A DNA stretch of 64,000 nt from an uncultured Ruminococcus sp. (GTDB lineage: Bacteria; Bacillota; Clostridia; UBA1212): assembly GCA_902792515.1 (NCBI GenBank), contig CADAZX010000001.1, forward strand, positions 72,441-136,440, read 5' to 3'. A program made the translations under genes and the position numbers. The notes beneath the pieces were generated by a model that saw nothing but the letters and a program-made list of their open reading frames with translations, did no database searches and was not told the DNA's origin. This document shows, in pieces, positions 21,149 to 64,000 of this stretch (its first letter is position 1; the number at the start of each line of letters is the position of its first letter).

Positions 21149-21162
21149 TTGTTTTTCCTCCC

Positions 21163-23084: not shown

Positions 23085-23209
23085 AACACTTTCCGTTTCT
23101 TTTTGTTTCTTTTTTCCGGGTCTCCCGTACGCCGGCTTTTCGAAAAAGCCGCTTCGGGAATATCCCGGTCTGTTTTTAATAAATTCTCATTTAGATTTTA
23201 AGGCGTCGC

Positions 23210-24022: not shown

Positions 24023-24119
24023 TGAAAAAGCCTCCTGTAAAAAAGTATGTTTATCTGTGGTATTTTTTGCCGGCCCCGCGGCCGTTTGTTTTCGTATTTC
24101 CCGGAAATAATATTGAATA

Positions 24120-24554: not shown

Positions 24555-24576
24555 GACGGCCGTCCGCCTTTCCGCG

Positions 24577-24960
24577 TCACGTCTTGGTGATTGCGACCAC
24601 GGTGAACTTGAGCGTTTCCCTCAAGTAGTCCACGACCGCGTGCACCGCCGCCTCGACCTCTGAAACCGTGCCTGTCATTATGAGCGTTCCGCTGAACCTG
24701 TCCACGAATCCGATCTCCGCGCCGGAGGCCTTCATCGCTATGTCGCCCGCGATTATCGACGTCTCCGCCGGCGTCATCGTCATGATTCCGATCGAACTGT
24801 TTGAGTAGTCGACCGACGGGTTGAGTCCCATCTTCCTGTACAGGATCGGCTCAGGGTTCGCGATAATGTGCGCCAGCGTCACCTGCTTGCCGGGAACGAG
24901 CTCCTGCACGATCCTCATTTTCGTGTCGTCGGACTGTTTGATTAATCCCTGAAGATCCAT
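24577..24960 (-). CDS. pduU: Circularly permuted BMC shell protein, PduU/EutS-type
   Basis: GFVDRFSGTLIMTGTVSEVEAAV and an N-terminal beta-barrel-forming segment, ~127 aa. Confidence 0.8.
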   Translation of the reverse strand: MDLQGLIKQSDDTKMRIVQELVPGKQVTLAHIIANPEPILYRKMGLNPSVDYSNSSIGIMTMTPAETSIIAGDIAMKASGAEIGFVDRFSGTLIMTGTVSEVEAAVHAVVDYLRETLKFTVVAITKT

Positions 24961-24961
24961 T

Positions 24962-25753: not shown

Positions 25754-25829
25754 TGTCGGTTGATTTTTCCTTGAGTTTCAGTGTTTTCCGCTGCTTTGGA
25801 AGCAGTTGTTCGTTGAAATCGCCAGGTTT

Positions 25830-26027
25830 CGAGCTATTTTCGCGTGCGCGGACCCGCGTGTGTCTCCGCTTGGTCTCCGGTTTAGCTGGCGCTAAAAGTC
25901 GCCCTCGCGCGAGACGCACGCGATTCTACCTTATAAACGTCGACGCAGCTTGATATTGCGACATGAACGATTCCGCGTTAGCGGTCAAGTGAGGGACGCA
26001 ACATAAAGTGCGGACTGCGTAAAGAGC
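25830..26027. repeat. Intergenic modular repeat, copy B (blocks Z, X, Y, W), lying between the glycyl radical enzyme and its activase
   Basis: Z 25830-25851, X 25857-25887, Y 25941-26012, W (ctgcgtaaagagc) 26015-26027. The blocks match copies at 14267-14600. Confidence 0.8.
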
Positions 26028-26042
26028 CGAAAGCCGGCGATT

Positions 26043-49626: not shown

Positions 49627-50112
49627 TTATCTCTTGCGGCCGCCCGCAGGCCCGCCGCTTAAAACAGAAGTCAGAAGCCCCTCGCACCCCTCAGAAATGT
49701 CGTCCCACGCCTCGTCAAAATTCCCGGTGTACCACGGGTCGGCGACCTCCTGCCCTTTCCGGCCTGTAAAATCGAGCAGCAGAACAATCTTGCCCTCCGG
49801 GTCGCCGCCCGCGATTGCGGTCGCGTTCCTGACGTTGGCGCGGTCCATGCAGACGATGAGGTCGTAATAATCGTAGTCCTGTCTTGTCATCCTCCGTGCG
49901 TGATGACCCGCACAGCCAATTCCGTTTTCGGCAAGCTTGCGCCTCGCGGGGGGATAGACCGGATTCCCGATTTCCTCATAACTTGTCGCCGCCGACGCAA
50001 TCTCGAACCGCGCCTCACACCGGCGGCGTTTTACAAGATCCTTCATCAAAAACTCCGCCATCGGGCTTCTGCAGATGTTGCCGTGGCAGACGAACAGTAT
50101 TTTTAATGACAT
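49627..50112 (-). CDS. Low-molecular-weight protein-tyrosine phosphatase
   Basis: The CHGNICRSP P-loop (CX5R) is at the N-terminus and a DPWY loop lies further on. Its first 10 codons are duplicated at 51798-51827. Confidence 0.9.
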   Translation of the reverse strand: MSLKILFVCHGNICRSPMAEFLMKDLVKRRRCEARFEIASAATSYEEIGNPVYPPARRKLAENGIGCAGHHARRMTRQDYDYYDLIVCMDRANVRNATAIAGGDPEGKIVLLLDFTGRKGQEVADPWYTGNFDEAWDDISEGCEGLLTSVLSGGPAGGRKR

Positions 50113-50135
50113 TTTTCTCTCTCTTTATTCTTTTA

Positions 50136-51467
50136 TCATTTACTGCGCAAATAGTCTTTTAAGAGAAACACAAGATAATGAGGGAATGATCGTATATTAC
50201 CTTCCACACCGATATTACCATCAATCAATTTGATGCCAAAGTGAATATCCGGATATGAATCACTCTTAATCAATGTACGGAGCGATTTACTATTTCCGTT
50301 TCTGGCCTTAACCTCTACCGGAATAAGGGTTTCAGTATTACGAACAAAGAAATCTTCTTCTAAAGTAGAGTTTTCTTTTGAATAATAATACAGGTCAAAC
50401 CCTGCCTTAACCAGCATATCTCCTACTATATTTTCATATAGTCCCCCTCGATAGGTTCCTATGTTTTTGCGGCTTCTCAGATCCTCCTGAGTTTCATCGT
50501 CAAGCATTGCAATCAGCAAACCGGTATCTGCCATATAAATCTTGTATTTTGTTTCATCATAGTTCCCCTTAAGGGGAAGTTCAGGGTAATTCAAGCAATA
50601 ACACACATTGATGATCCCGGCATTTGACAGCCACTCTATTGCCCCTCTGTAGTCCTTAAACCTGGCGCCTGAAGCAACTTTACTGATCTGGAATTTTTTG
50701 TTTTCTTTTGCTAACTGAACCGGTATATGTCTGAATACATTAAGAATTCGGCTTTGGTCCAATCCTTCCGCATATTTTGTAATATCCTCCTCATAGTCGG
50801 ACAATAGTTGCCTTTGAAGCTCCAATGTATTTGAAAACATACCGTTTCTGACATATTCCAAAACTACTGCCGGCATTCCTCCAACTATTACATAATCCAA
50901 AAAAGCTTCCGCCATAACCTGTACCAATGAAGCCTGTAGCGGAGTTCCGTCCTGCATTGCTTTAAAAAGATCTGCCTTCAATCCGTCATCATAACCTTTG
51001 GCCCATAAAAACTCTTCAAAATCCAACGATCTCAAAGTGTAATCGGTTTTATATCCAACACTATTGCTCTCAATCTTCTTGTAATAAACTCCAAGCAACG
51101 AGCCGCTGCAAATCACATCATAACGCCTGTCAATGCAGTATGCCTTTAGTGTGGTTGCAATGTCCGGATGATCTTGTATTTCATCAAAAAAAATCAGAGT
51201 TTTTCCCTCAATAAATTTCTTAGAAGGATCTATCCGGCTGATTGCTTTATTGACTGTCTCCACAGTGTATCCATCTTCGGTGATTACGCAATATTTCTTC
51301 TCCAATGCAAAATTGATATATATGATGTTGTCATAAAAACCTTTAGCGAAACGCATTATACTTTCGGTCTTCCCAACCTGTCTGGCACCTTTAATGATCA
51401 ATGGCTTTCGGTTCGGGTTTTCATGCCACTCACTTAAGATTTTATCCACCTTACGCTTTAAGTACAT
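50136..51467 (-). CDS. AAA+ ATPase with a DUF4143-type C-terminal domain (AAA_14/DUF4143 family)
   Basis: Start reassigned to MYLKRKVDKI (RBS GAGGAGG). Walker A GARQVGKTE and Walker B IFFDEIQ. Low GC. Confidence 0.75.
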   Translation of the reverse strand: MYLKRKVDKILSEWHENPNRKPLIIKGARQVGKTESIMRFAKGFYDNIIYINFALEKKYCVITEDGYTVETVNKAISRIDPSKKFIEGKTLIFFDEIQDHPDIATTLKAYCIDRRYDVICSGSLLGVYYKKIESNSVGYKTDYTLRSLDFEEFLWAKGYDDGLKADLFKAMQDGTPLQASLVQVMAEAFLDYVIVGGMPAVVLEYVRNGMFSNTLELQRQLLSDYEEDITKYAEGLDQSRILNVFRHIPVQLAKENKKFQISKVASGARFKDYRGAIEWLSNAGIINVCYCLNYPELPLKGNYDETKYKIYMADTGLLIAMLDDETQEDLRSRKNIGTYRGGLYENIVGDMLVKAGFDLYYYSKENSTLEEDFFVRNTETLIPVEVKARNGNSKSLRTLIKSDSYPDIHFGIKLIDGNIGVEGNIRSFPHYLVFLLKDYLRSK

Positions 51468-51896
51468 AATAGGACCTCCTCTCAATCTAAATAGTATTAT
51501 AGAGCAACAGCGATAATTTTTCAACTATTTTATGAGCGAGTTAGTCGCGGGTTTTGCATTTTTATGAGCGTGTTTTTATGTTCCCACACCTTTTTATGTC
51601 AAAAAAGGCCTCGCCGCATCACAGCATCACAGCAAAGTCCTAAAAACCGCTTGTATAAAATTTAATGTATATAAAAAATGTTGTATTGGAGTCCGTATTG
51701 ATTGGTTACTTAAGGGTGCAATTAAGGTGCAAACTCACGATCAAAACAGCTCTCAAAGCTTGATATTTAAGGCTTTTCACCGCTCGGTTGGTAGAGTGCC
51801 GTGGCAGACGAACAGTATCTTAATCATATCGTTTTCATGTTTTATCGGGGTTTGGATGCCTTTCTATACCCGGATTCCTGCATTATTAATTATCGT

Positions 51897-53195
51897 TTAT
51901 CTTAATACTGCCCATTTCCCGGTTTTATTTCCACCACGACGTTCAATCACCTTTTTCCTCTTTAATGCTGCAAGTATTTTTCTTATATATCCGTCAGAGT
52001 ATCCACTTGCAGCAACCATTTCCTTTATCGTGATACCGGAATTATGACTTATATAATCGATAACTCGCCGCTCCGCATCATTAATACTGATTTTATTATC
52101 AGGCTCAGTTACACTATTGTCATTTTTCTCATAATTAAACGGAATAGTTACATTAACAAAGTTCTCCGTAATATCAAAAGCCTGCTTTCCATAATTACTA
52201 ATTATAAGAGGAACGCCATGACCTGTTTGTTCCACGTATCCCAATTGACCGAATATCTTTTGAAGTTTGGAATTAACCGGCTTACTTATTCCTTTGAAAA
52301 ACTCTTCCTTATTTAAATCTACAGGTAATCCTCCCGTAGAAATGATTTCTATTCTATCTGAAAAAACGTAAACCGCCGGTGGATTCCCTTTTATCCATTT
52401 CGTATGAATACATGCATTTTGCCAAGCTTCTTTAAAACTGGCCATGTCAAAAAGTCTTTCTTCTATTCGTCTGTGATTGCCCATCGTGACCATAGTTTCA
52501 TTAACGGATTCCATGTAATCCAACACTCTATCCATAGCGGTAACGAGACATGTTCCTCCGTATTCGTTTCTCTTTATTAGAACTGTCTTATCTTTTCCTG
52601 CAAAAGTAACCACTTTGATTGAGATGTCATTTTCGTCAGCAAGCAAAAAAGCCATTAGATTATACTTCCCATCGCTGTTTTTCAGCCCGGTATTATCTTC
52701 GAAAGTTGTTTGGTCGACTGTCAGCCCCGCCGTTACAAAAGCAATTTTGAGTTTATTAAAAGTAAGCGTCTGAACAGGCGCCGGAACCAAAGTCAAAACA
52801 TCTGATGATGCTTGTCTGTCTATTAACTCCTTTAATGCTGTCGGACTCAATTCTCTATCTTCATCCGCAGATCGCATATAATAGCGTCCATATGCCGAGT
52901 ATGGTTTTTCAGAGCCACGTACTTCAATCTTAATTACGTTTTTATCATCTATCAATCCATGTTCTATAATTGGTATAATCTGCGGTTTAATGAAATTTGC
53001 TATTGCCTGGGATATTTCTCTAAGCGTTCTATCACCCATTTGTTGACCAACTACGTCCCCATTGTCCTTAACCCCAAAATACAGAATTCCATATCCATTC
53101 TTGTTGAGCATAGAAGCCAATGAAGTGATTCCTTCCCGGAGTTCTCCCGTTGTCCTCTTAAACTCTATTTTTTCAGTCTCCACTCCTATATTCAC
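51897..53195 (-). CDS. AlbA_2 / Schlafen-like divergent AAA domain protein with a C-terminal wHTH (putative ATP-dependent DNA-binding regulator)
   Basis: Probable GTG start (RBS AGGAGG) giving MNIGVETEKIEFKRTTGEL. The N-terminal AlbA_2-type motif (ESE.IEFK) and the C-terminal GYIRKILAALKRKKVIERRG HTH-like segment are present. Low GC. Confidence 0.65.
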   Translation of the reverse strand: MNIGVETEKIEFKRTTGELREGITSLASMLNKNGYGILYFGVKDNGDVVGQQMGDRTLREISQAIANFIKPQIIPIIEHGLIDDKNVIKIEVRGSEKPYSAYGRYYMRSADEDRELSPTALKELIDRQASSDVLTLVPAPVQTLTFNKLKIAFVTAGLTVDQTTFEDNTGLKNSDGKYNLMAFLLADENDISIKVVTFAGKDKTVLIKRNEYGGTCLVTAMDRVLDYMESVNETMVTMGNHRRIEERLFDMASFKEAWQNACIHTKWIKGNPPAVYVFSDRIEIISTGGLPVDLNKEEFFKGISKPVNSKLQKIFGQLGYVEQTGHGVPLIISNYGKQAFDITENFVNVTIPFNYEKNDNSVTEPDNKISINDAERRVIDYISHNSGITIKEMVAASGYSDGYIRKILAALKRKKVIERRGGNKTGKWAVLR

Positions 53196-53512
53196 TGCTC
53201 CACGCCTCCTAAACATCAATTGTTGGATTTGAACAGTTTTTCGCTTGCTTGGTCAGCTAACTGCTCTCCGCTATTTTGAATTATACTCCATTTGCTTTCT
53301 TTTTGCTACTCTTTTTTGCCACTTTATTTGCTACTTTATTTGCCACTTTAATTACTACCAACCCGGGTTTCTTTTCAACATCTGCTGCCGTTGCCATAAA
53401 AGAAACTAACCAAATAAGTACCGTTTCTTAAATACCCGGCTTTATATCGCCGCAGGTATAAAGAAACAGCAGCCGGAACGAACAGAACCCTCATCATAGA
53501 ATCAAATTCCTA

Positions 53513-53953
53513 TCAATCAAGCTTCGCGAGCTCCTCCGGATCGTCCTTCGGCTGGCAGAGGTGGATTATTTTCGCGTCCGGGTACTCTTTTCTCAAACGT
53601 TTGTCGGCGTTTTTCGCGAAGCCGCTGGCGCTGTAAAGAACGAACGTCAGCTTTTTCCCGGAAAAATCCGTGTCCCTGAGGACCGTGTTAACGGGGCTCG
53701 CGAGACGCGCGTTCCAGACAGGTGCGCCGACCCAGACCTCGTCGTAGCCGCTTACGTCGCTGTCGTAGCCCTTGAGCTTCGGTTTCTGTCCGATTCCCGC
53801 CGAGAAACCGCCCTTCAGCAACTGCGGAAGCAGCTTTTTGCTGAGCGTGAACTCCGATTCGACTTTGCGGAGCTCGAAACCTTTTTCGGCGAGTTTTGCG
53901 GCGACCGCGTCACCGTTTCCGCTGAAACTGTAGTAAACGAACAACTTTGCCAT
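53513..53953 (-). CDS. Flavodoxin-family protein
   Basis: MAKLFVYYSFSGNGDAVAAKLAEKG N-terminal FMN-binding loop, ~146 aa. Confidence 0.75.
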   Translation of the reverse strand: MAKLFVYYSFSGNGDAVAAKLAEKGFELRKVESEFTLSKKLLPQLLKGGFSAGIGQKPKLKGYDSDVSGYDEVWVGAPVWNARLASPVNTVLRDTDFSGKKLTFVLYSASGFAKNADKRLRKEYPDAKIIHLCQPKDDPEELAKLD

Positions 53954-54149
53954 GGTATATTGCCCCTTTCCTCAGGCTGAAATCATTTTTGAACCCTTTC
54001 CGTTCATATCTAATTGTATAAGTTTTCCGGTGTTTGTCAATATCCCACGCGACGTTCACGCGACGTTCACGGCCTAAAAAGCTGTTCCAAAAAGCGCTCG
54101 AATGTGATATCATTGGCTCATCCATCAAAAACCGGGAGGAGACCTTCAG

Positions 54150-55493
54150 ATGAGTATGCAGACCGGGGCGGAGACCTTGAAAGTTAAAGTTGATTTTTCC
54201 GAAAAGAAAGGGCCCGTGAAGCCCCTGCACGGTGTGGGACAGCCGCCGTTTTACGGCCTCGACTTCTCGATGTTCCGCTACCTGACCGATGCGGGGATTC
54301 CGTTTTCGCGTCTTCACGACGTTGGCGGGTGGTTCGGCGGGTCGATGTTCGTCGACATTCCGAACCTGTTCCCGGATTTCGGTAAGGACCCGGCCGACCC
54401 GGCATCGTACGATTTCACGTTCACGGACATGCTCATTTCCGCGCTCACGGAAGCGTCCGTCGAGCCCGTTTTCAGGCTTGGCGTCTCGATCGAAAACTTC
54501 GTCGAGATCAAGGCGTACCGCGTGTTCCCGCCGGCAGACAATCTAAAATGGGCGAAGATCTGCGAGGGCGTCATCCGCCACTACACCGAAGGCTGGGCAG
54601 ACGGCTTTTACCACAAAATCCGCTACTGGGAGATCTGGAACGAGCCCGACAACGAGGAGGACCCCCTCAAAAATCCGATGTGGCGCGGCACGATGGAGCA
54701 GTATTTCGAGCTTTACGGCACCGCTTCCCGCTACCTCAAAAACCGCTTTCCGCACCTGAAAATAGGCGGATACGCGTCCTGCGGCTTCTACGCGATAGCC
54801 GGTATCGAGACCGACCCGAACGCGAAGGCAACCGCGCGTGAAGAGTATTTTGTCGAGTACTTCGAAAAGTTCCTGGAGTACGTCAAGACAAACGGCTGCC
54901 CGCTCGACTTTTTCTCGTGGCACAGCTACGCCTCGATCGAAAACACCGCGATCTTCGCGCGGTACGCGCGCAAAATGCTTGACGGATACGGCTTCACGGA
55001 GACCGAGACGATGTGCAACGAGTGGAACTGCGAGGTCTTCCACCGCGGGACCGCCCACCACGCCGCCGTGACCGCCGCGATGATGCTCTCGTTCCAGCAC
55101 CTGCCGGTCGATTCGGCAATGTTCTACGACGCGCAGCTCAGCCCGAGCGTTTACGGCTCGCTTTTCAACCCGTTGACTCGCGAACCCCTTCCCTCTTACG
55201 AGGCGTTCCTCGCGTTCAACGAGCTGTACAAGCGCGGAACTGAGACCGGACTCACTTTTGAAGGCGCCGCCGCGGGAATTTACGGAGCGGCATCATTCGA
55301 CGAAGAAAAAGGCGGCGCGATAGTAATCGCGAACGTCTCGCCGTCGGAGAAGCGCCTTGAGTACTGTTCCGGCGGGAGAAACATTGTTTCGTACCGCCTC
55401 CTGACAGAAGAAGGCCTCCGTGCGGAAGCCCCATGCTCAGGCCTTCCCGCCACGCTCCCCGGTAACTCGATTTTGACGGTCATAACGGAATGA
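54150..55493 (+). CDS. Clan GH-A glycoside hydrolase, GH39-like (beta-xylosidase family)
   Basis: The YWEIWNEPDN motif carries the acid/base Glu. It has a (beta/alpha)8 organisation and no signal peptide. Confidence 0.55.
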   Translation: MSMQTGAETLKVKVDFSEKKGPVKPLHGVGQPPFYGLDFSMFRYLTDAGIPFSRLHDVGGWFGGSMFVDIPNLFPDFGKDPADPASYDFTFTDMLISALTEASVEPVFRLGVSIENFVEIKAYRVFPPADNLKWAKICEGVIRHYTEGWADGFYHKIRYWEIWNEPDNEEDPLKNPMWRGTMEQYFELYGTASRYLKNRFPHLKIGGYASCGFYAIAGIETDPNAKATAREEYFVEYFEKFLEYVKTNGCPLDFFSWHSYASIENTAIFARYARKMLDGYGFTETETMCNEWNCEVFHRGTAHHAAVTAAMMLSFQHLPVDSAMFYDAQLSPSVYGSLFNPLTREPLPSYEAFLAFNELYKRGTETGLTFEGAAAGIYGAASFDEEKGGAIVIANVSPSEKRLEYCSGGRNIVSYRLLTEEGLRAEAPCSGLPATLPGNSILTVITE

Positions 55494-55509
55494 TCTGTTT
55501 ATACGCGAA

Positions 55510-55557
55510 GCGCGCCTGCCCCGGCCGGGGCAGGCGCGCCGTTTTTACCTAAACAAA
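55510..55557. terminator. Bidirectional terminator between the convergent genes 54150..55493 and 55566..56630
   Basis: GCGCGCCTGCCCCGGCCGGGGCAGGCGCGC palindrome followed by cgtttttacc. Confidence 0.75.
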
Positions 55558-55565
55558 GGCAAAAT

Positions 55566-56630
55566 TTATTCAAGAACAATTTCTTTTCCCGCAGCAGATG
55601 AGTCGTACATCGCCTGCATCATTTTCGCGGTGATTATCACGGTATCGATATGCGACGGCTGCTTTTCGCCCGTTCTGACGGCGCGCACAAACGAGTCGAT
55701 CTCCTCCTGGAACATGTCGTTCGGTTTGAACTCCGGTTTGTAGCTCACGAGCTTTCCGCCGCCGGTGGTGTAAAACGTGAAATCCGAGCCGTAGTTCAAG
55801 CGGATGCCGCCCTTCGTGCCGAGGAAGTCGATAAAGGACTCGCCGACGCCGATGTTCTGTGCCCAGGCGCCGTTAAACGTTACGGTCGGGCCGGACGTAC
55901 GCACGAAGCCCGTCACAAAATCGTCCACGTCGTACGTTCCGTTCAAGTCTTTTGTGTTCTCCGCCCACATGCCCTCGTATACGTAGTTTTTCATATCGAC
56001 TCCGAGCTTGCAGAACGCCTTCGCGGAAACGGTCTCCGGCCGCGGGTCGCCCGTGCAGAACATCATGATGTCAAGATAGTGAACGCCCCAGTCGATCAGG
56101 ACGCCGCCGCCCGATATCGCGTTCGTCGTAAACGCGCCGCCAAGGCCGGGAATCGAGCGCTGCTGGCGAAAGCTCACGTAGACGTGGTAGACCTCGCCAA
56201 GGTCGCCGTTCGAGATCATTTCCCGGATCTTGCGGACCGCGGAGCTGAAACGGTTCACGACGCCGATGTTCAGAGTCTTTCCGTATTTGTGCTGCGCCTC
56301 CTGCATTTTGAGCGCGTCCGCGTACGTCCTCGCGGCGGGCTTTTCGCACAAAACGTGCTTCCCCGCGGCGAGCGCGTCGCAGGTGATCGTCATGTGCATT
56401 CTGTTCGGGGTGCATACGGACACAGCGTCGATTTCGGGGTCGTTTATCACGTCGTGATAGTCGGTGCAGGCGGTGCCGCAGCCGTACTTTTCGACCGCCC
56501 CGAACGCTTTTTCGGGAATGATGTCGCAAAAATACTTGATCCGAACGTCCGGATTTTTGAGATACGCGGGAATGTGCGCGCTGTTGGCGATCGTGCCGCA
56601 TCCGATGATTCCGATTACCGTTTTTTCCAT
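55566..56630 (-). CDS. Gfo/Idh/MocA-family NAD(P)-dependent oxidoreductase
   Basis: Start reassigned to MEKTVIGIIGCGTIANSAH (RBS AAAGAGGGA). Rossmann GxGxxA and the EKP motif (LCEKPAA). Confidence 0.85.
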   Translation of the reverse strand: MEKTVIGIIGCGTIANSAHIPAYLKNPDVRIKYFCDIIPEKAFGAVEKYGCGTACTDYHDVINDPEIDAVSVCTPNRMHMTITCDALAAGKHVLCEKPAARTYADALKMQEAQHKYGKTLNIGVVNRFSSAVRKIREMISNGDLGEVYHVYVSFRQQRSIPGLGGAFTTNAISGGGVLIDWGVHYLDIMMFCTGDPRPETVSAKAFCKLGVDMKNYVYEGMWAENTKDLNGTYDVDDFVTGFVRTSGPTVTFNGAWAQNIGVGESFIDFLGTKGGIRLNYGSDFTFYTTGGGKLVSYKPEFKPNDMFQEEIDSFVRAVRTGEKQPSHIDTVIITAKMMQAMYDSSAAGKEIVLE

Positions 56631-56704
56631 TTTCCGTCCCTCTTTCAAACTTTTAGCAAAAATTACCGTATTTTCAAGCCTTTTGCCTAAAACCGCGTGC
56701 GTTT

Positions 56705-57556
56705 CTACCTGTCGTACCTGCTGTGGTCGTCTTCATCACAGGTGCCTTTGCCGTCCGGTCCCGTGAGGAAAGGCCGGTACATCATGATCGCGGAATTCGC
56801 GACCACAAACTCCTCGCGCACAAACTCTCCGTCTCGGGTGTAAACCTCCCTGTAGAGCTCGTTGTGCCTCGAGTAGCCGCCCCAGAACTCCTGCCGCATC
56901 TCGTGGTTGTTTTCGACGATCTCGTACTTGAACAGCGGCGGTTCGACCGACCTCCACTCGCCGGTGAGATACTCCTCGCCGACGTTCACCAGAAGCTGGA
57001 ACGGTATGTCAGTGTCGTTCCGGATCATCAGGTCGAGGTGCGGGTAGTAGCAGGTGGCGCCGCTTGCGAAAGGCTGCGTGCGGTTGGAGTCCGGGAAGAC
57101 GTCGTAGCCGTGGCGGTAGCGTTCGGTAACGGTGAGCGGAGTGTGGAGCGTCATCCAGTAGATCAGGTTCGTCATCTGGCAGAGCCCGCCGCCGATGCCC
57201 TTCCCGACCGTTCCGTTGCTGAGGACGAGCCCCTCTTTGTAGCCTTTTTTGGCGGACGTTTTGCCCACGAGGTACCAGAAGCTGAACGTCTGGCCGGGCT
57301 TCACGACGACGCCGTTTATCTTCGCGGCCGCGAGCTTAAGGTTGGTGATCTTGTTGTACTGGAGGTACATGTCGACGTCCTTGAGCTTTCTGAGGAGCGG
57401 CGTTTTGTGCGTGAACTGAAGCTCGGGAAGCGGCTCCGTACTGCGTTCGGTAGCGAACCTTTTCCGCATCCTCAGCCAGAGGAGCTTCCGCTTTGTCTTG
57501 TAATAAAGCATGCCGCACGCGGCGCGAATTTTTGATCTTTTTATAGGCTTTTTCAT
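56705..57556 (-). CDS. VanW-family protein
   Basis: GQTFSFWYLVG...GYKEG core typical of Pfam VanW, ~283 aa. Confidence 0.7.
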   Translation of the reverse strand: MKKPIKRSKIRAACGMLYYKTKRKLLWLRMRKRFATERSTEPLPELQFTHKTPLLRKLKDVDMYLQYNKITNLKLAAAKINGVVVKPGQTFSFWYLVGKTSAKKGYKEGLVLSNGTVGKGIGGGLCQMTNLIYWMTLHTPLTVTERYRHGYDVFPDSNRTQPFASGATCYYPHLDLMIRNDTDIPFQLLVNVGEEYLTGEWRSVEPPLFKYEIVENNHEMRQEFWGGYSRHNELYREVYTRDGEFVREEFVVANSAIMMYRPFLTGPDGKGTCDEDDHSRYDR

Positions 57557-57597
57557 TGTTTGACACCTCCCGTTTACGTACGGACGTTTCCTTTCTT

Positions 57598-58692
57598 TTA
57601 TTTTACGAGAAGAGTTTTAACGTTCTTTCCCGCGATGGCATCGTCGAAGGCGCGGTTCACGTCGGAAACCTTGTAGCACGTCGCGAGCGACTTCACCGCC
57701 GGCTGAAGTTCCGGGCGGTTCTTCAGGAACTCCAGGTAGATTCTTACGTCCTTGATAGAATACTGGGACGAGCCGATGAACCTGAGCGCCTTGAACGTGA
57801 TCGTCTGCGGGTCGATTTTGACGGAGCCGCTGTCGCTGTACTGGCCGGGAATTATGTAGACGCCGCGGTTCCGCAGGATGTCCATGCCGAGGGGGACGGC
57901 CGAAGGCGCGCCTGAGCACTCGATGCAGACGTCCGCGCCGAGGCCGCCGTTTTCCGCGAGGATCTTGGCCTTGATCGCGTTTTCGCCGTCCTTTTCGAGG
58001 CTCAAAACCTCGTCGGCGCCGAGCTTTTTCAAAAGTCCGGTGCGTTCCGGCTTGCTGCGGGCGCCTATCGCAAAGAGCTTTTTCACGCCGAGCGCTTTAA
58101 GATACATGACCGCGAAGCAGCCGACCGGGCCGAGTCCCTGCACGACCGCGACCGTCTCACCGCCGATCGTGTAACCCGCCTGTTCCGCGAGCCGCACGCC
58201 GTGAATGACAGTCGGCCCGGGGCACGCGAAAACAGCCGTCGCAACCGGGTCGACGCCTTCGGGAATCTTCAGAAGGTTCGTAAGAGGCGTGTAGTTTACC
58301 TCCGCGTAGCCGCCGTAGAGGTAGGGAGGGACTGTGATGTCGCCTTCGTTCGTGACGCCCATGTTGACGCAGTTGGCGTCGTCGCCCGTTCTGCAAAGGA
58401 GGCATTTCCCGCACGGAACCGCGATGTCCGCGATAACGTTGTCGCCCTCTTTAAGACCGAACCGCGCGGCCTCTTCCGGGTCGCAGCCCGTGAGTTTTCC
58501 GACGAACTCGTGTCCGATTATCGACGGCGCGCCCATCGCGAGCCTGCCCTTGAAAATGTGAACGTCCGTGCCGCACACGCCGCTTGCTATGAGCTCGCTC
58601 TTTCCGTAGCCCTTCGGCACGTCCGTGATTTCAAATTCCCTGACGCTGAACGGAACGTTCGCGCCCTCAAATACAGCCGCTTTTGCTTTCAT
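57598..58692 (-). CDS. Zinc-dependent MDR alcohol/polyol dehydrogenase (sorbitol/threonine dehydrogenase-like)
   Basis: GVCGTDVH, GHEFVG and the structural-zinc Cys cluster CGKCLLC. The start is taken at MKAKAAV. Confidence 0.8.
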   Translation of the reverse strand: MKAKAAVFEGANVPFSVREFEITDVPKGYGKSELIASGVCGTDVHIFKGRLAMGAPSIIGHEFVGKLTGCDPEEAARFGLKEGDNVIADIAVPCGKCLLCRTGDDANCVNMGVTNEGDITVPPYLYGGYAEVNYTPLTNLLKIPEGVDPVATAVFACPGPTVIHGVRLAEQAGYTIGGETVAVVQGLGPVGCFAVMYLKALGVKKLFAIGARSKPERTGLLKKLGADEVLSLEKDGENAIKAKILAENGGLGADVCIECSGAPSAVPLGMDILRNRGVYIIPGQYSDSGSVKIDPQTITFKALRFIGSSQYSIKDVRIYLEFLKNRPELQPAVKSLATCYKVSDVNRAFDDAIAGKNVKTLLVK

Positions 58693-58796
58693 TTTGCACA
58701 CATGCCTTTCCCGCTGTTTTTAGCTAAATTTAGTAAAATTTGTCATTTTCTCCCGCCGGAGTCTCCCGACGGAGCCTGCCGGCTGTTCCGGCCTTT

Positions 58797-59951
58797 TTAG
58801 TCCTCCCATTCCGGGACGTCTATTCTCACCCATTCCGGCAGCGGTTCTCCGAGAACCGGAAAGTTCCGCTTGTCGAATTTGATTCTCTGTATATACGCGT
58901 AGCGCCCCTCGACACCCGCGTCCGGGGTGCTCATTCCGTGGTACGCGATCCACGTCTCCTCGCCGTCCGGCGACGTGAAGAACGAGCAGTGGCCGACGCC
59001 GTAAACGCAGTTTGCCTTTTCGAAAACGGGCTTTTTGCTCTTTTTCCAGTTGGCCGGGTTCAAAAAATTCTGCCGCGAGGTGTCCTTTCCGGTGTAGTGG
59101 AGCAGGCCGAGCGAGTAGAATTCGCTCCAGCAGCCGCTCGCGGAGTAGATCAAAAATATCTCGCCGTTGTGAGTGATGAACACCGGGCCCTCGTTCACCC
59201 TGCCGTCGTTGGTGCCGTCGGAACCGCGCTTTTCCCAGTCGTACTCCGGGTACGTCGCCGTGACACGCTCCTCTCCGACAGTCCACGGGTTGTCCATCGC
59301 CGCGAGCATCACGACCTGCCCCTTGTCGGTGAAATCGCAGTACGCGGTGTAGAGCTCGCCGCTCGCCTCGTCGTAGTAGACGGTCTGGTCGATGCATATC
59401 TTTCCGTCAAGCGTAATTCCCTTGAACGTGTAGTTGCCGAACGGGTCGCCGCCGTCCGATTCGAGGCAGAACATACGCATGTCGCCGAAGTCAAAGCTTC
59501 CGATCGTCGAGCACGAGTAGGCGTACCACCTGCCGGTCACCGGGTAGTAGTGGAGCTCGGGCGCCCAAATATTGCCGCCCATGGTCCTGCCGCCCCCTAT
59601 GGCGTCGCCTGTTTTAACCAGGTCCTTGCTCTCGCCTTTCGTGAATAGATCCTCCACGGTCTTGTTTTTGTACAGTCTGACCTGAAACGCCTCCGTGGCG
59701 AGACCGTAAAAATATCCTTCGTGGTAGAAAATGAAAGGGTCGGGCATCGATTTTGTTGAAATCGGGTTGTAAAACGTTCTCAAGCCTTCCGTCCCCTTTC
59801 CGTGGCGGGCCCAGTTTTCGTCAAAGGCTTCCTTTTTCGCGCATCCCGCCGGCCCCGCGCAAAAAACGGTCGCGCACAGCAGAAGTACCGCGATAGCCGC
59901 AAATGCCGCAGGCCGCGCCGCTTTTTTTCTCATACTCATAACCGTGTCCAT
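58797..59951 (-). CDS. GH43-family glycoside hydrolase (beta-xylosidase/arabinofuranosidase-like), lipoprotein or secreted
   Basis: DPFIFYHEGYFY N-terminal GH43 motif (catalytic Asp). Five-bladed propeller repeats. Signal peptide with Cys (LLLCATVFCAG). Confidence 0.8.
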   Translation of the reverse strand: MDTVMSMRKKAARPAAFAAIAVLLLCATVFCAGPAGCAKKEAFDENWARHGKGTEGLRTFYNPISTKSMPDPFIFYHEGYFYGLATEAFQVRLYKNKTVEDLFTKGESKDLVKTGDAIGGGRTMGGNIWAPELHYYPVTGRWYAYSCSTIGSFDFGDMRMFCLESDGGDPFGNYTFKGITLDGKICIDQTVYYDEASGELYTAYCDFTDKGQVVMLAAMDNPWTVGEERVTATYPEYDWEKRGSDGTNDGRVNEGPVFITHNGEIFLIYSASGCWSEFYSLGLLHYTGKDTSRQNFLNPANWKKSKKPVFEKANCVYGVGHCSFFTSPDGEETWIAYHGMSTPDAGVEGRYAYIQRIKFDKRNFPVLGEPLPEWVRIDVPEWED

Positions 59952-60050
59952 TTCCGTGTCTGTCTTAATGTCCGTCCCGGTTGTCCGTCTAAACCGTCTG
60001 TCATAATTGTCTGTATAAACCGTCTGCCCCGGTTTTTGCCGGCCGGCGGT

Positions 60051-60821
60051 CTATTCAATGCCTGTCTCGATATATTTTCCGAGCATTTCCCCGGCTCTCG
60101 CGACCTCCTCCGCCGCCGGCGGAGACGTTTTCGCGAAAACGTACTCGCGCCCCATGGCCTTGTACTTCGCGCTGCCCAGGCGGTGGAACGGTATCAGGTC
60201 CGCGTGTTTTACGCCGGCTTCGAGCAGCGTCGAGAGGATCAGCCGGAGCTCCCCGTCCGACGTGTTGACGCCGGGAATGAACGGAATCCGCGCCGTCACG
60301 TTCGCGCCGCATGCAACGAGCTTTTTGAGGTTCGAAACGATCAGGTCGAAGTCGCCGCCCGTGACCGAGGCGTACTTTTCGCGCGAACCCGCTTTAATAT
60401 CGTAGTAAAAAGCGTTCACGCTGCCGAGCACCACCTCGAAATTCCGCCACGGAACGCACCCGGCCGTATCGACAAGCGTGCTTATCCCGCGCTCTTTCAG
60501 GATCGCCGCGAGCTCCGCGACGCCCTCGTACTGGAGCATCGGCTCGCCGCCGCTCACGGTGACGCCGCCTCCTCCCGCATTGTAAAAATCCGCGTCCTCC
60601 GACACGTCGTCTGCGACCTCCAACGGCGTCATAAGTTTTCCGTAGGTGACCGTTTTGCCGGCCGCCGCGAAAACGAGCGTCTCGGGCTTCGCGGAGATGT
60701 TTTCCGGGTTGTGGCACCACGGGCAGCGCAGGTTGCAGCCTTTCAGGAAAACGGTCGTCCTGATGCCGGGGCCGTCGCCCGTCGAGAACCGCTGTATGTT
60801 GCTGACGTTCAGAACTGCCAT
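60051..60821 (-). CDS. Second glycyl-radical-enzyme activating enzyme (radical SAM)
   Basis: CNLRCPWCHNPE radical-SAM motif and VTVSGGEP SAM motif. Its start lies 3 nt from the stop of the upstream short glycyl radical enzyme. Confidence 0.9.
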   Translation of the reverse strand: MAVLNVSNIQRFSTGDGPGIRTTVFLKGCNLRCPWCHNPENISAKPETLVFAAAGKTVTYGKLMTPLEVADDVSEDADFYNAGGGGVTVSGGEPMLQYEGVAELAAILKERGISTLVDTAGCVPWRNFEVVLGSVNAFYYDIKAGSREKYASVTGGDFDLIVSNLKKLVACGANVTARIPFIPGVNTSDGELRLILSTLLEAGVKHADLIPFHRLGSAKYKAMGREYVFAKTSPPAAEEVARAGEMLGKYIETGIE

Positions 60822-60824
60822 GGT

Positions 60825-62960
60825 TTAAACTTCTTCATGCTGGGTGCGGCTCAGAATGTCCTCCTGCACCTCGTCCGCTAGCGTCACGTACAGCGCCGAA
60901 AAGCCGGAAACGCGCACCACGAGCGACTGATAGTTCTCGGGGTGGATCCTGGCGTCCTGAAGCACCTCGCGCGACGTGGAGTTGATCTGGATCTCCTGGC
61001 CGCCGCGGGAAAAATACACCCTTATCAGCTGCGCGAGCTTTTCGCGCTTGCCGTCCTTGAAAGCGGAGGGTGAAAACTTCTGGTTGACGACGGAGCCGCA
61101 GGCGCAGCGCGTGTAGTCGGGTTTGGAGACGCTCAGAAGCGTCGACGTGACGCCTTTTACGTCGCAGCCGTACGTCGGCGAGGCGGCGTCGGAAAGAGGC
61201 CTTCCGGCGAGCCTTCCGTCGGGTGTGGCGCCGAGTCCGTGGCCTGCGTAAATGTTCGACACGTTGGCCGCCTGTGCCGTGTAGACAGGTCCGCCGTCAA
61301 GAGTCGTGTACCTGTCGAACATGTCGGAAAGCGTGCTCGTGTACCACACCGCGTACTTGTCGACGAACGCGTCGTTGTTCCCGTACTTCGGCGCGGCCAG
61401 CACCGTCTCTCTGATGTCCCCGTAGCCTTCATAATTGGCCTTAATTGCCGCCGCGAGCGTCGAGAGGGGTATTTTCCTGTCCTCGAACACAACGCGCTCT
61501 ATGGCTGCGAGAGAGTCGCTGACGGTGCCTATGCCCATAAGCGCCGCGCCGTGCGCCGACGGATACTTCGCGCCTCCCATGTTAATGTCGCGTCCCCTCT
61601 CGATGCAGCATTGGCAGAAGCACGACAAAAAAGGTGCCGTCATGTTTTCCGGCTCGGCCACGAACTGGCCTCGCCTCATCCACTCAATATAATTTTCAAC
61701 GCCCTCTTTGAGCCGCTCCTCGTAGATCCTCATGAACGCGTCCATCGACTCTATCGAATCGAGTTCCTCCGCGGTTTTACCCACGAGAATCGCCTCAAGA
61801 TAGTTGATCGGGTCGAACCTGCCGTCCGACCACGGGGGCTGCATGCCGGTGATGAAATTCTCGATGCAGCCAACCATGCAGTAGTTTCTGACGTCCTTAA
61901 GCTCGTAGCCCTTTCTGAGAAGCGCCGCCATATTGACCGTGTCGTTCATCAGAGCCGGGTATCCGAGACCCGTGCCGATGACCTTCAGGCACTCGTCCAG
62001 GAATTCGTCCGGACAGTCCGGAGTGATCCTCGCGGAAAGGTTCGGTCCGGGAAGGTTCACGTCTCTCACCGCGCGCAGAACGCAGTACGACAGCCCGTTC
62101 ACCGAGCACACGCCCTCTTCGTCGACGCCGCCGATGCAGATGTTGACAACGTCGTCGCAGCCCCTGTACCTGAACTCGCAGATCTTCGCGAACGTGTTGG
62201 CGACAAGCTCCTCGCAGCGTTCGTCCGTAAGCGTTCCGTTCGCGATATCCTTCAAATAGAGCGGATAAAGGTAGCGGTCGATCCTTCCGAGAGCCATCGC
62301 GTACCTGCCCTCGAGCACGAAGCAGTTGTGGATCATCCACACAAGCTGAAGCCCCTGCGCGAACGTCCCCGGCGCACCCTCAAGAAGCGCCCGCATGTTG
62401 CCCGCGATAAAATCGAGCTTCTCCGCGTCGTACCCCTCCGCGCCTTTCAGCGATTCGGCCTTTTCCGCGTAGTTTTCGATGCGCTTCAAAAGTCCCTCGA
62501 GCGTCCGCTTCATCGCCTTCAAAAAGCCTGTCGCCTCCGCGTCGCCCGCGTGCTTCTCCGCCGAAGCGTCGATGTCGCGAATCATTCCCGGGATGCCCTT
62601 TTCGACAGCCGTGAAATAGTCTGCCGCGTAGTGGTCGGTGTTGCACGAAAACGTGCGTTCCGGGTATTTTGCGAAAACCGCCGCCGCGCGCCCGCGCTCG
62701 TCGTCAGGCACCTCGAGAATTACGTCTCTGAGGCTGCCCGCGATCAGGTCGTTTTTATAAATATGCGGCTCCGGCATGGCGAAAAGCGCGTAAAGCCCGT
62801 CCGCGCGAACGTTCGCGTTAATTGTATTTGCACTCTCCGAAAGGCCGCGCGCCCTGAATATCTCAGGGCAGAAAACCCCCTTCGGGAAGCTCAGAATCTC
62901 ACTTTTCAGTTCGGAAATATTACTCACAGTGTGCTCCGTTTCCGCGCGGCTTGCGCGCAT
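60825..62960 (-). CDS. Second, unusually short (~700 aa) glycyl radical enzyme of the eliminase/dehydratase class, substrate unknown
   Basis: C-terminal glycine-radical motif RVSGFSALYVTL. Thiyl-loop GCIENF (Cys-x-Glu, as in dehydratases/lyases). The N-terminus is ~100-140 aa shorter than typical members. A GTG start with RBS GGAG is possible, which would give MSNISELKSE. Confidence 0.75.
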   Translation of the reverse strand: MRASRAETEHTVSNISELKSEILSFPKGVFCPEIFRARGLSESANTINANVRADGLYALFAMPEPHIYKNDLIAGSLRDVILEVPDDERGRAAAVFAKYPERTFSCNTDHYAADYFTAVEKGIPGMIRDIDASAEKHAGDAEATGFLKAMKRTLEGLLKRIENYAEKAESLKGAEGYDAEKLDFIAGNMRALLEGAPGTFAQGLQLVWMIHNCFVLEGRYAMALGRIDRYLYPLYLKDIANGTLTDERCEELVANTFAKICEFRYRGCDDVVNICIGGVDEEGVCSVNGLSYCVLRAVRDVNLPGPNLSARITPDCPDEFLDECLKVIGTGLGYPALMNDTVNMAALLRKGYELKDVRNYCMVGCIENFITGMQPPWSDGRFDPINYLEAILVGKTAEELDSIESMDAFMRIYEERLKEGVENYIEWMRRGQFVAEPENMTAPFLSCFCQCCIERGRDINMGGAKYPSAHGAALMGIGTVSDSLAAIERVVFEDRKIPLSTLAAAIKANYEGYGDIRETVLAAPKYGNNDAFVDKYAVWYTSTLSDMFDRYTTLDGGPVYTAQAANVSNIYAGHGLGATPDGRLAGRPLSDAASPTYGCDVKGVTSTLLSVSKPDYTRCACGSVVNQKFSPSAFKDGKREKLAQLIRVYFSRGGQEIQINSTSREVLQDARIHPENYQSLVVRVSGFSALYVTLADEVQEDILSRTQHEEV

Positions 62961-63093
62961 GCATAATTCTAACGGTATTATACCACGTCCGCGCAGGGTT
63001 TTAAAGCCCGCGAAAAGAATTTAAGCATGATTCCGGCACCGCCCACGGCAGTCTTTTTCCGCCCGTTTTCGCTCCTTTTAACACCCGGAAGCC

Positions 63094-63130
63094 AAAAAAA
63101 TCCGGACCCGAAGGTCCGGACCTTTTTAAT
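63094..63130 (-). terminator. Rho-independent terminator after the 63166..end surface-protein gene
   Basis: aaaaaaaTCCGGACC-cgaa-GGTCCGGAccttttt. Confidence 0.75.
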
Positions 63131-63165
63131 TATTTAAGATTCGGCACGCCTGAGCGCGCTTTGTC

Positions 63166-64000
63166 TCAATAGGATTTCCTGCGGATGAAAACGAACGCAG
63201 CGCTCATAGCGAGAACAACGATAACCGCGAACATCGCAACGGTTGCGTCGCCCGTCGTAGGCTGAGGAACTTCGCCGCCGGGCTCTTCACCGGGAACACC
63301 GATGAACGTGAAGCTGGTGTTGGCACCGCCGTAGTTGGCGTCCATAAGAACGGGCTCCTCACGGTTGAGCAGTTTGACAACCACGACAACGTTCTTCTCA
63401 CCCTTGATGGTCGTAGCGTCGATCTCGATCGCGAATCTGGAGGCAAGAGGTCCGCCGGCGCCGAGCACGCCCGCTTCGGTGGTCGTCTTGAAGTCGCCGT
63501 AAACAGGAGCGGCGTCGCCGATCTTGTAACCGAACGATTCAATCTCGTCAGCAAAGCCTACCCAGCCGCGGATAACCAACTTGGTAACGCTGCCGTCGGA
63601 GCCGTCAACGGTTCTGTCATGTTTGTCGAGCTTGCCGGAAGCACCGCCGTCGCCCTCGCCGAAGTTGATGACGTCGTTAACATAGAACGTGTCGAAAGAG
63701 CTGCCAACAACAGTTGCCGGATCCGGAGTGTCGGTGATCTCGGGCAGAGCGCCGTAGATGGCGTCCTTCTCGAAGGATCTGACGCCGAAGTTGAAGGTCT
63801 GAGTGCCGTCGTCAACGTTGGTCGCGTAAATAGCCTTTTCAGTGTTTCCTTTGACCGGGATTACGAAGTAGCCTCCGTTCTCCTGGCTGAGCAGACGGAT
63901 CGCGAACACGTACTGACCCTTCGGAAGAGCCTCGAATTCCATAGCGTCTCCGCCGGCGTGGTCACCGTCGGGAGAGTATTCCTGTCTTACCAGAGGAGTC
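63166..64000 (-). CDS. Cell-surface protein, third paralogue with a PTTGDAT-TM-RRKSY tail. Its 5' end lies outside the window.
   Basis: The reading frame stays open upstream of the Met at 63942, through to the window edge. The IRGWVGFADEIESFGYKIGD...YGDFK motif and the C-terminal ...PQPTTGDATVAMFAVIVVLAMSAAFVFIRRKSY match the paralogues at 6567 and 8295. Confidence 0.65.
   Translation of the reverse strand, partial: TPLVRQEYSPDGDHAGGDAMEFEALPKGQYVFAIRLLSQENGGYFVIPVKGNTEKAIYATNVDDGTQTFNFGVRSFEKDAIYGALPEITDTPDPATVVGSSFDTFYVNDVINFGEGDGGASGKLDKHDRTVDGSDGSVTKLVIRGWVGFADEIESFGYKIGDAAPVYGDFKTTTEAGVLGAGGPLASRFAIEIDATTIKGEKNVVVVVKLLNREEPVLMDANYGGANTSFTFIGVPGEEPGGEVPQPTTGDATVAMFAVIVVLAMSAAFVFIRRKSY

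Follow-up and report, generated by a model that had tools for sequence, protein, structure and literature searches.

Glycyl radical enzymes (GREs) drive hard anaerobic chemistry in the gut and rumen, giving rise to trimethylamine, hydrogen sulfide, p-cresol and precursors of propionate. In the dhaB1-dhaB2-dhaT operon of Clostridium butyricum, a glycerol dehydratase, its activase and an alcohol dehydrogenase are encoded in that order, and radical dehydration to a carbonyl compound is followed by reduction. The same logic is found in HpfG and HpfD, a 2,3-dihydroxypropane-1-sulfonate (DHPS) dehydratase and a sulfopropionaldehyde reductase. According to a 2026 review of the field (PMC13450708), the CXE motif's glutamate forms a hydrogen bond to the substrate hydroxyl and deprotonates it in all GRE eliminases and isomerases, and His164 of glycerol dehydratase protonates the departing hydroxyl. 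The conserved dimer interface of GREs is built by the helices that precede the barrel, the great majority of GRE activases bear a ferredoxin-like domain whose role is not known, and whole GRE clades are still without an assigned function (PMC13450708). The present work concerns a compact GRE encoded together with its own activase and a zinc-dependent alcohol dehydrogenase (Zn-ADH) in a 64,000-nucleotide stretch of DNA, called the window hereafter, from an uncultured Ruminococcus sp. (assembly GCA_902792515.1, contig CADAZX010000001.1, positions 72,441 to 136,440). A GRE 1,2-eliminase with an activase is a known kind of system, and the distinct elements are the compact GRE, the minimal activase and the dedicated Zn-ADH. 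By analogy with the dha operon and HpfG/HpfD, the three genes are read, with moderate confidence, as an inducible operon in which a 1,2-elimination of dehydratase type is followed by reduction of the carbonyl product, the net result being reductive deoxygenation.

The module consists of the following features (window coordinates).

60825..62927, reverse strand: GRE coding sequence (CDS), 700 aa, GTG start (MSNISELKSE), placed by Pfam matches, homologue lengths and a GGAG sequence
60051..60821, reverse strand: GRE-activating radical S-adenosylmethionine (SAM) enzyme, 256 aa, with Pfam Radical_SAM and Fer4_12 and a TIGR02494 match
60714..60737, reverse strand: CX3CX2C motif of the activase (CNLRCPWC), predicted to bind the radical-SAM [4Fe-4S] cluster
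57598..58692, reverse strand: zinc-dependent medium-chain alcohol dehydrogenase, 364 aa, encoded third in the module, with Pfam ADH_N and ADH_zinc_N

The GRE matches the Pfam families PFL-like (PF02901, E 1.8e-106) and Gly_radical (PF01228, E 8.6e-25), and its domains, RVSGFSA motif, barrel fold, invariant Cys354 and adjacent activase make it a member of the PFL-like GRE superfamily. A preliminary description of the window, made from the sequence without database searches, had reported a second GRE coupled to its own activase, which is borne out. A spacer of 3 nt separates the GRE stop from the activase ATG (TAA acc ATG), the two genes are probably translationally coupled, and the activase scores 235.9 bits against the TIGR02494 cut-off of 174.35, in a match split into two stretches. 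The same description had suggested that the true GRE start may be a GTG, and this start is now favoured. GTG 62927 is the better choice because it is preceded by GGAG at 6 nt and agrees with the length of the relatives (a 99%-identical database protein has 700 aa, and most have 697–701 aa), whereas ATG 62960, which opens the longer and less likely reading frame 60825..62960 (reverse strand, 711 aa), would give a leader about 10 nt long, with no ribosome-binding site.

Compactness is a trait of the whole family. A protein search over 5.8 billion sequences returned more than 120 clusters, defined at 90% identity, which are 58–99% identical to the window GRE and nearly all 697–726 aa long. They stem from uncultured Clostridia, and their database names are generic only ('hypothetical protein' or 'formate C-acetyltransferase'). 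The length of about 700 aa was seen again at 42 genome loci and 80 metagenome loci from independent rumen, gut and other assemblies (about 120 loci, numbered with the prefix L below), the nearest genome being a rumen metagenome-assembled genome (MAG) labelled Mageeibacillus sp. UBA1212, with 98% identity. An AlphaFold2 (AF2) model of the GRE built with 42 family sequences reached a predicted local distance difference test (pLDDT) of 89.2 and a predicted template-modelling (TM) score of 0.90, and the first 100 residues lie at pLDDT 83–97. The protein reaches the curated cut-off of no NCBIfam GRE model, as might be expected of a degenerate, non-functional remnant or a product of faulty assembly or annotation. 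Such an explanation is effectively refuted by the existence of over 100 different full-length homologues with about 700 aa each in independent assemblies, the invariant catalytic and radical motifs, the confidently modelled N-terminus and the retained cognate activase. A frameshift or assembly error, which the preliminary description had allowed for, is thus ruled out as the cause of the shortness.

The missing residues were mapped by aligning the protein to E. coli YbiW, PflD and PflB and to a second GRE of the window, 842 aa long. Earlier, the protein had been described as 100–140 residues shorter at the N-terminus. It is genuinely compact, but its extreme N-terminus is kept and aligns with those of other GREs, and the loss is internal. 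About 58 residues are gone as three deletions at family positions ~65–88, among the helices that lead up to barrel strand 1, and additional deletions, in loops, occur ahead of the GGDDVVN strand and, relative to the 842-aa enzyme, near position 500. The trimmed part appears, in this alignment, to be the set of helices by which other GREs form their dimer interface. The fold itself is intact, since the AF2 model matches GRE structures with TM scores of 0.84–0.91, and Foldseek ranks glycerol dehydratase (1r8w) and propanediol dehydratases highest (TM 0.91, 26–28% identity). The sole stretch with pLDDT below 50 is an invariant GTGLG segment (residues 318–322, ~61962..61976), which may be a mobile loop.

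As far as sequence comparison can place it, the window GRE falls in no characterised GRE family, and its identity to characterised or solved GREs is about 26–30%. NCBIfam equivalog models with curated cut-offs were used for the assignment, and all scored far under their thresholds: CutC (TIGR04394) 332 bits against 1050, HypD (NF043068) 315.5 against 1100, the PflD type (PRK09983) 296 against 1109, HpsG 288 against 1000, HpfG 257 against 1000 and PFL (TIGR01255) 98.6 against 994. In the PDB, CutC and glycerol dehydratase come closest by sequence (about 300 bits), and the Foldseek identity to HypD is 24%. With blastp, YbiW, PflD and the 842-aa GRE each match at 30% identity and 260–273 bits, whereas these three match one another at 458–538 bits (YbiW against PflD, about 480). 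Furthermore, an exhaustive HMMER scan over 1.84 billion cluster representatives brought out a graded set of further compact GREs (690–726 aa, 37–56% identical, 400–683 bits) from Armatimonadota, Elusimicrobiota, Lentisphaerota and Clostridia, below which the bulk of GREs of 750–850 aa follows at about 300 bits. In a rough neighbour-joining (NJ) tree, which holds no labelled glycerol dehydratase, CutC or HypD sequences, the family falls in a clade of mostly compact enzymes with none of the included references inside, and the nearest of these references are E. coli PflD and YbiW. The preliminary statement that the enzyme is not covered by the characterised families is therefore upheld, and the tight clustering with HypD or propanediol dehydratase that could have overturned it is seen neither in the equivalog scores nor in the rough tree. 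A literature search that included the 2026 review (PMC13450708) found nothing corresponding to the compact family.

The chemistry is best approached through the catalytic residues. Conservation was counted over 104 distinct family sequences of 45–100% identity; residue equivalences were taken from a HMMER alignment to 1r8w, and pocket membership was assigned by that alignment only.

60894..60914, reverse strand: glycyl radical motif R672-V-S-G675-F-S-A678 (RVSGFSA), Gly675 invariant in the 104 sequences
61854..61871, reverse strand: Cys loop G353-C354-I355-E356-N357-F358 (GCIENF), with C, I, E and N invariant and F nearly so
62631..62636, reverse strand: Asp98-His99 on barrel strand beta-1, His in 104/104 and Asp in 103/104 sequences
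61824..61826, reverse strand: Asp368, aligned with Asp447 of glycerol dehydratase and followed by the family-specific invariant Arg370 (alignment and conservation)

The glycine and cysteine motifs had been correctly located in the preliminary description, and both are invariant across the family. His164, Cys433, Glu435 and Asp447 of glycerol dehydratase correspond to His99, Cys354, Glu356 and Asp368, a set that is invariant in 104/104 sequences. The Cys loop holds the thiyl-radical Cys354 and the CXE glutamate Glu356. It has a single Cys (VGCIE), in contrast to the Cys-Cys pair of PflB (ACCVS), and a PFL-type reaction is thus unlikely. After the Cys loop, the window GRE has W-S-D where Klebsiella pneumoniae CutC has W-T-S. 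The CXE motif by which the review (PMC13450708) defines such eliminases is invariant here (C354-I-E356), and by alignment the family also has the dehydratase-type His on strand beta-1 (His99) and Asp after the Cys loop (Asp368), both invariant as well. Taken together with the single Cys, their conservation makes a dehydratase-type 1,2-elimination the most likely chemistry.

The third gene provides the link to a subsequent reduction. The 42 genome and 80 metagenome loci were compared by tblastn of the window's neighbours, and Zn-ADH counts were taken from tblastn, not from clusters of open reading frames (ORFs), because the ORF caller had chosen antisense ORFs over some ADH genes of high GC content. 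The order GRE, activase, Zn-ADH is nearly universal across the compared loci. The activase is kept in 70 of the 79 deduplicated loci, and the Zn-ADH adjoins the module in 58/69 of those with at least 3.6 kb of downstream sequence. Moreover, the Zn-ADH is 49–92% identical across the family and conserved to the same degree as the GRE. Comparison with locus L004, which is 98% identical to the window, places its start at ATG 58692, not GTG 58701. The closest solved structure is that of the uncharacterised Thermotoga maritima TM0436 (1vj0), for which a literature search found nothing useful. A divergent AraC-family regulator occurs in 28 of 72 loci, and the operon is probably substrate-induced.

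In the proposed mechanism, the 256-aa activase would draw on S-adenosylmethionine and a single [4Fe-4S] cluster to remove a hydrogen from Gly675, and the glycyl radical would then make a thiyl radical at Cys354. This thiyl would take a hydrogen from the carbinol carbon of the substrate, while Glu356 would deprotonate the hydroxyl of the same carbinol. The adjacent oxygen leaving group would be eliminated, probably as a hydroxyl that Asp368 helps to bind and His99 protonates. After regaining a hydrogen, the product radical would yield an aldehyde or ketone, which the co-transcribed Zn-ADH would reduce with NAD(P)H. In this way, a vicinal diol or polyol would be reductively deoxygenated and would serve as a fermentative electron sink. 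Fold, motifs, catalytic residues, gene linkage and operon order are observed, while the chemistry, the direction in which the dehydrogenase works and the physiological role are proposed.

Although the catalytic set is that of the dehydratases, the pocket differs. His281/Ser282 of glycerol dehydratase correspond to Tyr209/Ala210, Tyr339 to Val260, Tyr640 to Ala553 and Ser642 to Asn555, and Ala210, Val260 and Ala553, at glycerol-binding positions, are invariant or nearly so in the family. Residues that are specific to the family and (nearly) invariant comprise D98, R208, Y209, A210, D258, D259, V260, Y323, M327, N357, F358, Q363, R370, H459, A553 and N555. By alignment, the pocket appears larger and more polar, and is possibly charged. 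Its invariance suggests that one substrate is probably shared by the whole family. Owing to the replacements S282A, Y339V and Y640A, the known substrates cannot simply be transferred, and these substitutions suggest a substrate other than glycerol or propanediol.

The closest described system nevertheless deserves to be weighed as an alternative, in which the module would encode a compact second B12-independent dehydratase of glycerol or a short 1,2-diol, and glycerol freed by lipases or esterases would be converted via 3-hydroxypropanal to 1,3-propanediol by the Zn-ADH. The order of dehydratase, activase and alcohol dehydrogenase is that of C. butyricum DhaB1-DhaB2-DhaT, a presumed electron sink based on dehydration and then reduction. 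Glycerol dehydratase 1r8w is the top Foldseek match, and it shares the CXE loop and the catalytic His, Glu and Asp. Moreover, family I.5 triacylglycerol-lipase homologues, which match solved Geobacillus-type lipases at E ~1e-57 to 1e-60, stand in tandem directly upstream of the GRE in L121 and L122, and another lies nearby in L099. However, the window GRE is just 28% identical to glycerol dehydratase and 87 residues shorter, the glycerol-binding S282, Y339 and Y640 have become A, V and A, and R-YA, with one residue deleted, stands in place of the GHS motif. A larger or charged ligand is suggested by eleven polar or charged residues that are invariant and particular to the family. The lipases are confined to those three loci, neither glpF nor dha genes recur, the ferredoxin-like domain is missing from the activase, and the reductase belongs to the zinc-dependent medium-chain dehydrogenases/reductases (Zn-MDR) and not to the iron-dependent type of DhaT. 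A dehydratase of glycerol or a short diol is regarded as unlikely.

The GRE propanediol dehydratases (Roseburia inulinivorans 5i2g; 9rco/9rcp) likewise share the fold (TM 0.91) and the His/Cys/Glu/Asp set. They differ in that they are only 26–29% identical, that the window GRE is 90–140 residues shorter and without a microcompartment context, and that their hydrophobic methyl pocket is not conserved. In line with the earlier remark that no shell genes accompany this GRE, no ORF with a bacterial microcompartment (BMC) domain lies near it in the window, and tblastn with one BMC protein of the window gave no match in the ~120 family loci, a single query of limited sensitivity.

Several observations weigh against an operon for dehydration and reduction. 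The broad eliminase subfamily model TIGR01774 (PFL2-3) gives the window GRE 381.8 bits, under its cut-off of 678.2, and the specificity residues of glycerol and propanediol dehydratases (S282, Y339, Y640) are among those replaced. A subclade (L012, L017, L062, L063, L079, L094) keeps a SASA-family gene, the GRE and the activase but has no ADH. Esterases, which are treated below, adjoin the GRE in only about one third of the loci, and no transporter is conserved. Additionally, the ADH could precede the GRE in the pathway and supply its substrate, as in the case of SarD and IslA, and the invariant Arg208 and Arg370 could point to an anionic substrate with a leaving group other than hydroxyl. Together with D98, D258 and D259, these arginines may leave room for an anionic or amino substrate.

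From such considerations arises another reading, in which a C-S, C-P or C-N bond beside a hydroxyl is cleaved in an anionic or amino alcohol (a sulfonate, phosphonate or amino alcohol), with the ADH acting first in the manner of SarD and IslA. Both HpfG/HpfD and IslA/SarD pair a GRE eliminase with an NAD(P)H-dependent alcohol dehydrogenase, in side pathways of fermentation or respiration. IslA, IseG and HpsG hold the sulfonate by two Arg and one Gln (PMC13450708), and the family-specific invariant R208 and R370, which by alignment lie beside pocket positions, may be comparable with these sites, while the invariant D98, D258 and D259 could bind an ammonium group. The best NCBIfam match of the Zn-ADH is the phosphonate-catabolism-associated TIGR03366, although its 125 bits are far below the cut-off of 328, and CitMHS or EamA transporters are found near the GRE in L052 and L094. 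On the other hand, that R208 and R370 face the pocket is an alignment-based assumption, and His99 is kept as in dehydratases, whereas C-S lyases are taken to have Gln there (Gln193 of IslA, by presumed equivalence). Furthermore, the ~120 loci show no recurrent sulfite reductase, aminotransferase or phosphonate gene, the HpsG and HpfG models score far under their cut-offs, and no sulfur-metabolism genes lie nearby. Cleavage of this kind is accordingly considered distinctly improbable. The probabilities assigned to the favoured reading and to the glycerol, sugar and C-S/C-P/C-N alternatives overlap in part.

The gene neighbourhood bears on a further alternative. Around the module, the following features were found.

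58693..60050, reverse strand: lineage-specific insertion of 1358 bp that splits the activase-ADH junction (blastn against L004)
58797..59951, reverse strand: CDS of a glycoside hydrolase family 43 (GH43) lipoprotein inside the insertion (Pfam GH43)
56705..57556, reverse strand: VanW-family gene, co-directional neighbour (Pfam)
55566..56648, reverse strand: Gfo/Idh/MocA oxidoreductase gene, co-directional neighbour (Pfam)

By blastn, the window and L004 are collinear apart from 58693..60050, and just 9 nt separate the activase stop from the ADH start in L004. The GH43 gene has a tblastn homologue in no other family locus among the ~120. Genes for VanW, Gfo/Idh/MocA and GH39-like proteins follow the module solely in L004 and L056, and other Gfo-family genes occur near the GRE in L014, L038, L116, L078 and L119. 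Beyond the core, the neighbourhood varies by lineage and consists of genes that are unrelated or have housekeeping roles, polC and pyrR among them; the presence of PolC, PyrR and NCS2 near the GRE reflects lineage synteny. Clustering of all neighbour ORFs in the ~120 loci revealed no conserved transporter or kinase. The GH43 gene being a unique insertion, and VanW, Gfo and GH39 being limited to the nearest relatives, the carbohydrate-active cluster in which the preliminary description had placed the GRE is a matter of local synteny and insertion, and a conserved cluster of this kind is rejected. From the list of neighbours given there, the Zn-ADH alone is a conserved partner, and the GH43, VanW, Gfo/Idh/MocA and GH39 genes are not. 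The sugar-derived substrate proposed on the strength of these neighbours is unsupported, because they are not conserved.

A sugar-derived substrate (a deoxy-sugar, sugar alcohol or anhydro-sugar) delivered by neighbouring glycoside hydrolases to an eliminase, or to a ring-opening isomerase like YbiW/PflD, was also weighed across the family. Apart from the GH43, Gfo/Idh/MocA and GH39-like neighbours in the window, this idea draws on a cytoplasmic GH43/GH32-like gene upstream of the GRE in 7 loci of one lineage, on genes of the SASA carbohydrate-esterase family in at least 14 loci, and on a Gfo gene with a putative xylose-isomerase-like TIM-barrel gene, labelled by reading of its ORF, in L014, L038 and L116. 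The invariant pocket is polar, and PflD and YbiW, which open the ring of 1,5-anhydrohexitol 6-phosphate in E. coli, are the nearest included references in the rough NJ tree and share the CXE motif and the beta-1 His. Yet that tree lacks labelled glycerol dehydratase, CutC and HypD sequences, the identity to YbiW/PflD is just 30% at 260–273 bits, and YbiW has Thr in place of Asp368. Moreover, in addition to the restricted distribution of the GH43, VanW, Gfo and GH39 genes, the family loci hold no conserved sugar transporter, kinase, phosphotransferase system (PTS) or aldolase. The sugar reading is therefore judged quite unlikely. A carbohydrate link of some kind, hinted at by the SASA/GDSL esterases in about one third of the loci, the GH43/GH32-like gene and the polar pocket residues, may still exist; triacylglycerol-type lipases, however, adjoin the GRE as well.

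Three esterase families adjoin the GRE in different lineages, namely SASA, GDSL and the family I.5-like triacylglycerol lipases described above. The cytoplasmic SASA-family protein (PF03629) is encoded in at least 14 genome loci and in further metagenome loci, where its gene either precedes the GRE or follows the activase or the ADH. GDSL-type proteins are found in L052, L109, L113, L129 and L134. Rarer neighbours include an aldo-keto reductase fused to a 4Fe-4S domain, a short-chain dehydrogenase/reductase and Eis-like GNAT acetyltransferases. The polar pocket of the family, the recurrent AraC regulator and the esterases and lipases together suggest, as a hint, that the substrate of the dehydration and reduction operon is a small polar alcohol released from an ester.

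Alignment with E. coli YbiY and PflC, which carry the ferredoxin-like auxiliary-cluster insert (about 8 Cys), and with PflA showed that the window activase lacks it. The protein has 5 Cys in total (CX3CX2C and two others), and the 53 residues from CX3CX2C to SGGE contain 0 Cys. An earlier review states that among the GRM microcompartment types GRM5 activases alone are without the insert. Like GRM5 activases and the PFL-activating enzyme (PFL-AE), the window activase thus consists of the single-cluster radical-SAM core, and the activase of a GRM5-type locus in the same window (263 aa) has the same short spacing and is 38% identical. Within the family, the spacing between CX3CX2C and SGGE falls into three forms.

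Nearly all loci with GRE identity of at least 53%: about 53 (50–64) residues, 0–2 Cys in the insert
Most deeper family members: 91–96 residues, 7–10 Cys in the insert
L038 and L116 (activase downstream of the GRE): 69 residues, 4 Cys in the insert

The four Cys of L038 and L116 would be enough for one auxiliary cluster. Exceptions are L073 (61% GRE identity), which has a 94-residue, 10-Cys form on the opposite strand, and, among the deep loci, L096, L100/L101 and L131, which have the short form. A rough NJ distance tree, which carries no support values, unites the family activases, and the insert-less ones are nested among the insert-bearing ones and apart from the GRM5 activase. In this they are unlike the GRM5 activases and PFL-AE, since they form a group of their own whose deep members keep 7–10 insert Cys. 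The nesting argues for domain loss within the family, and the ferredoxin-like domain seems to have been lost stepwise and independently of GRM5 and PFL-AE. Acquisition of the insert-less activase from the GRM5 locus of the same genome was considered and rejected, as the rough tree puts the activase inside the family.

Such stepwise loss within one family bears on the purpose of the auxiliary clusters of activases. It is about evenly balanced whether the family acts on a substrate of no characterised GRE, with an ester-derived polar or anionic polyol as the candidate, and whether with its Zn-ADH it forms a new reductive-deoxygenation pathway widespread in rumen and gut Clostridia, accompanied by an activase series with 8–9, 4 and 0 auxiliary Cys. 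Such a series could reveal what the ferredoxin-like domain is for. If the substrate is glycerol or propanediol, the finding shrinks to a convergent compact dehydratase of biotechnological interest. The family is abundant, with its more than 120 clusters all from uncultured Clostridia, and a 700-aa GRE with a minimal activase is attractive for expression and structural work. Additionally, the tightly linked ADH, predicted to depend on NAD(P)H, would serve as a reporter in simple coupled screening. Since the field already expects many unassigned GRE clades (PMC13450708), a specialist would see here a tractable target rather than a surprise; the compact GRE module is a good experimental target and not categorically new.

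Other short GREs were found at a greater distance. P0125 is solitary, with no activase or ADH adjoining, and P0129 lies on a 3-kb contig. P0127 (L053:6968-10956), from Elusimicrobiota, has 694 aa and 41% identity; a stand-alone pyruvate-kinase barrel-domain protein is encoded before it and a 304-aa activase with Fer4 matches after it, no ADH is present, and its function is probably different from that of the window GRE. As none of the three is accompanied by an ADH, they offer no clue to the substrate. In some genomes two short-GRE copies occur in tandem or nearby (L096:5801-7906; L033, with a second GRE ORF about 6 kb downstream), and the MAG SIG629 has two separate short-GRE loci (L028, L029) with no adjacent activase.

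The 842-aa GRE of the window belongs to a GRM5-type microcompartment locus (19928..28571, reverse strand), which also holds an HbpS-like protein and comprises the following genes.

26043..28571, reverse strand: GRE, 842 aa, which clears TIGR01774 with 750.6 bits
24962..25753, reverse strand: activase, 263 aa, without the ferredoxin insert
24577..24960, reverse strand: BMC-domain protein
24120..24554, reverse strand: PduV/EutP
23210..24022, reverse strand: class II aldolase
21163..22548, reverse strand: aldehyde dehydrogenase
19928..21148, reverse strand: second Zn-ADH

This locus probably encodes an organelle for the conversion of fucose or rhamnose to propanediol, and its GRE is probably of the 1,2-propanediol dehydratase kind. 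Between this locus and the compact GRE module lies an island of low GC content (~50000..54000, GC 0.39–0.42 against ~0.57 elsewhere). It contains a protein with Schlafen AlbA_2, HATPase_c_4 and HTH domains (51897..53219), and a similar gene is found near the distant short GRE of L053. At the edge of the island, 53513..53953 encodes a Flavodoxin_4 protein, a possible electron donor for the activases.

Upstream of the GRE, two signals were noted.

62977..63005, reverse strand: promoter-like TTTAAA-N17-TG-TATAAT, found by a consensus scan with 10/12 matches and an extended -10, a consensus match only
63105..63122: terminator-like hairpin for the gene upstream of the GRE operon

The promoter named in the preliminary description is present as a consensus site (63005..62977), but a scan of 7.9 kb (55400..63300) gave 2 matches of such quality against 1.9 expected from shuffles. 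With a density close to chance, the site is only suggestive. The hairpin follows the gene 63166..63942 (reverse strand), which encodes a 258-aa protein with no Pfam match that is conserved only in L004 and L056 and ends in a C-terminal hydrophobic anchor followed by basic residues.

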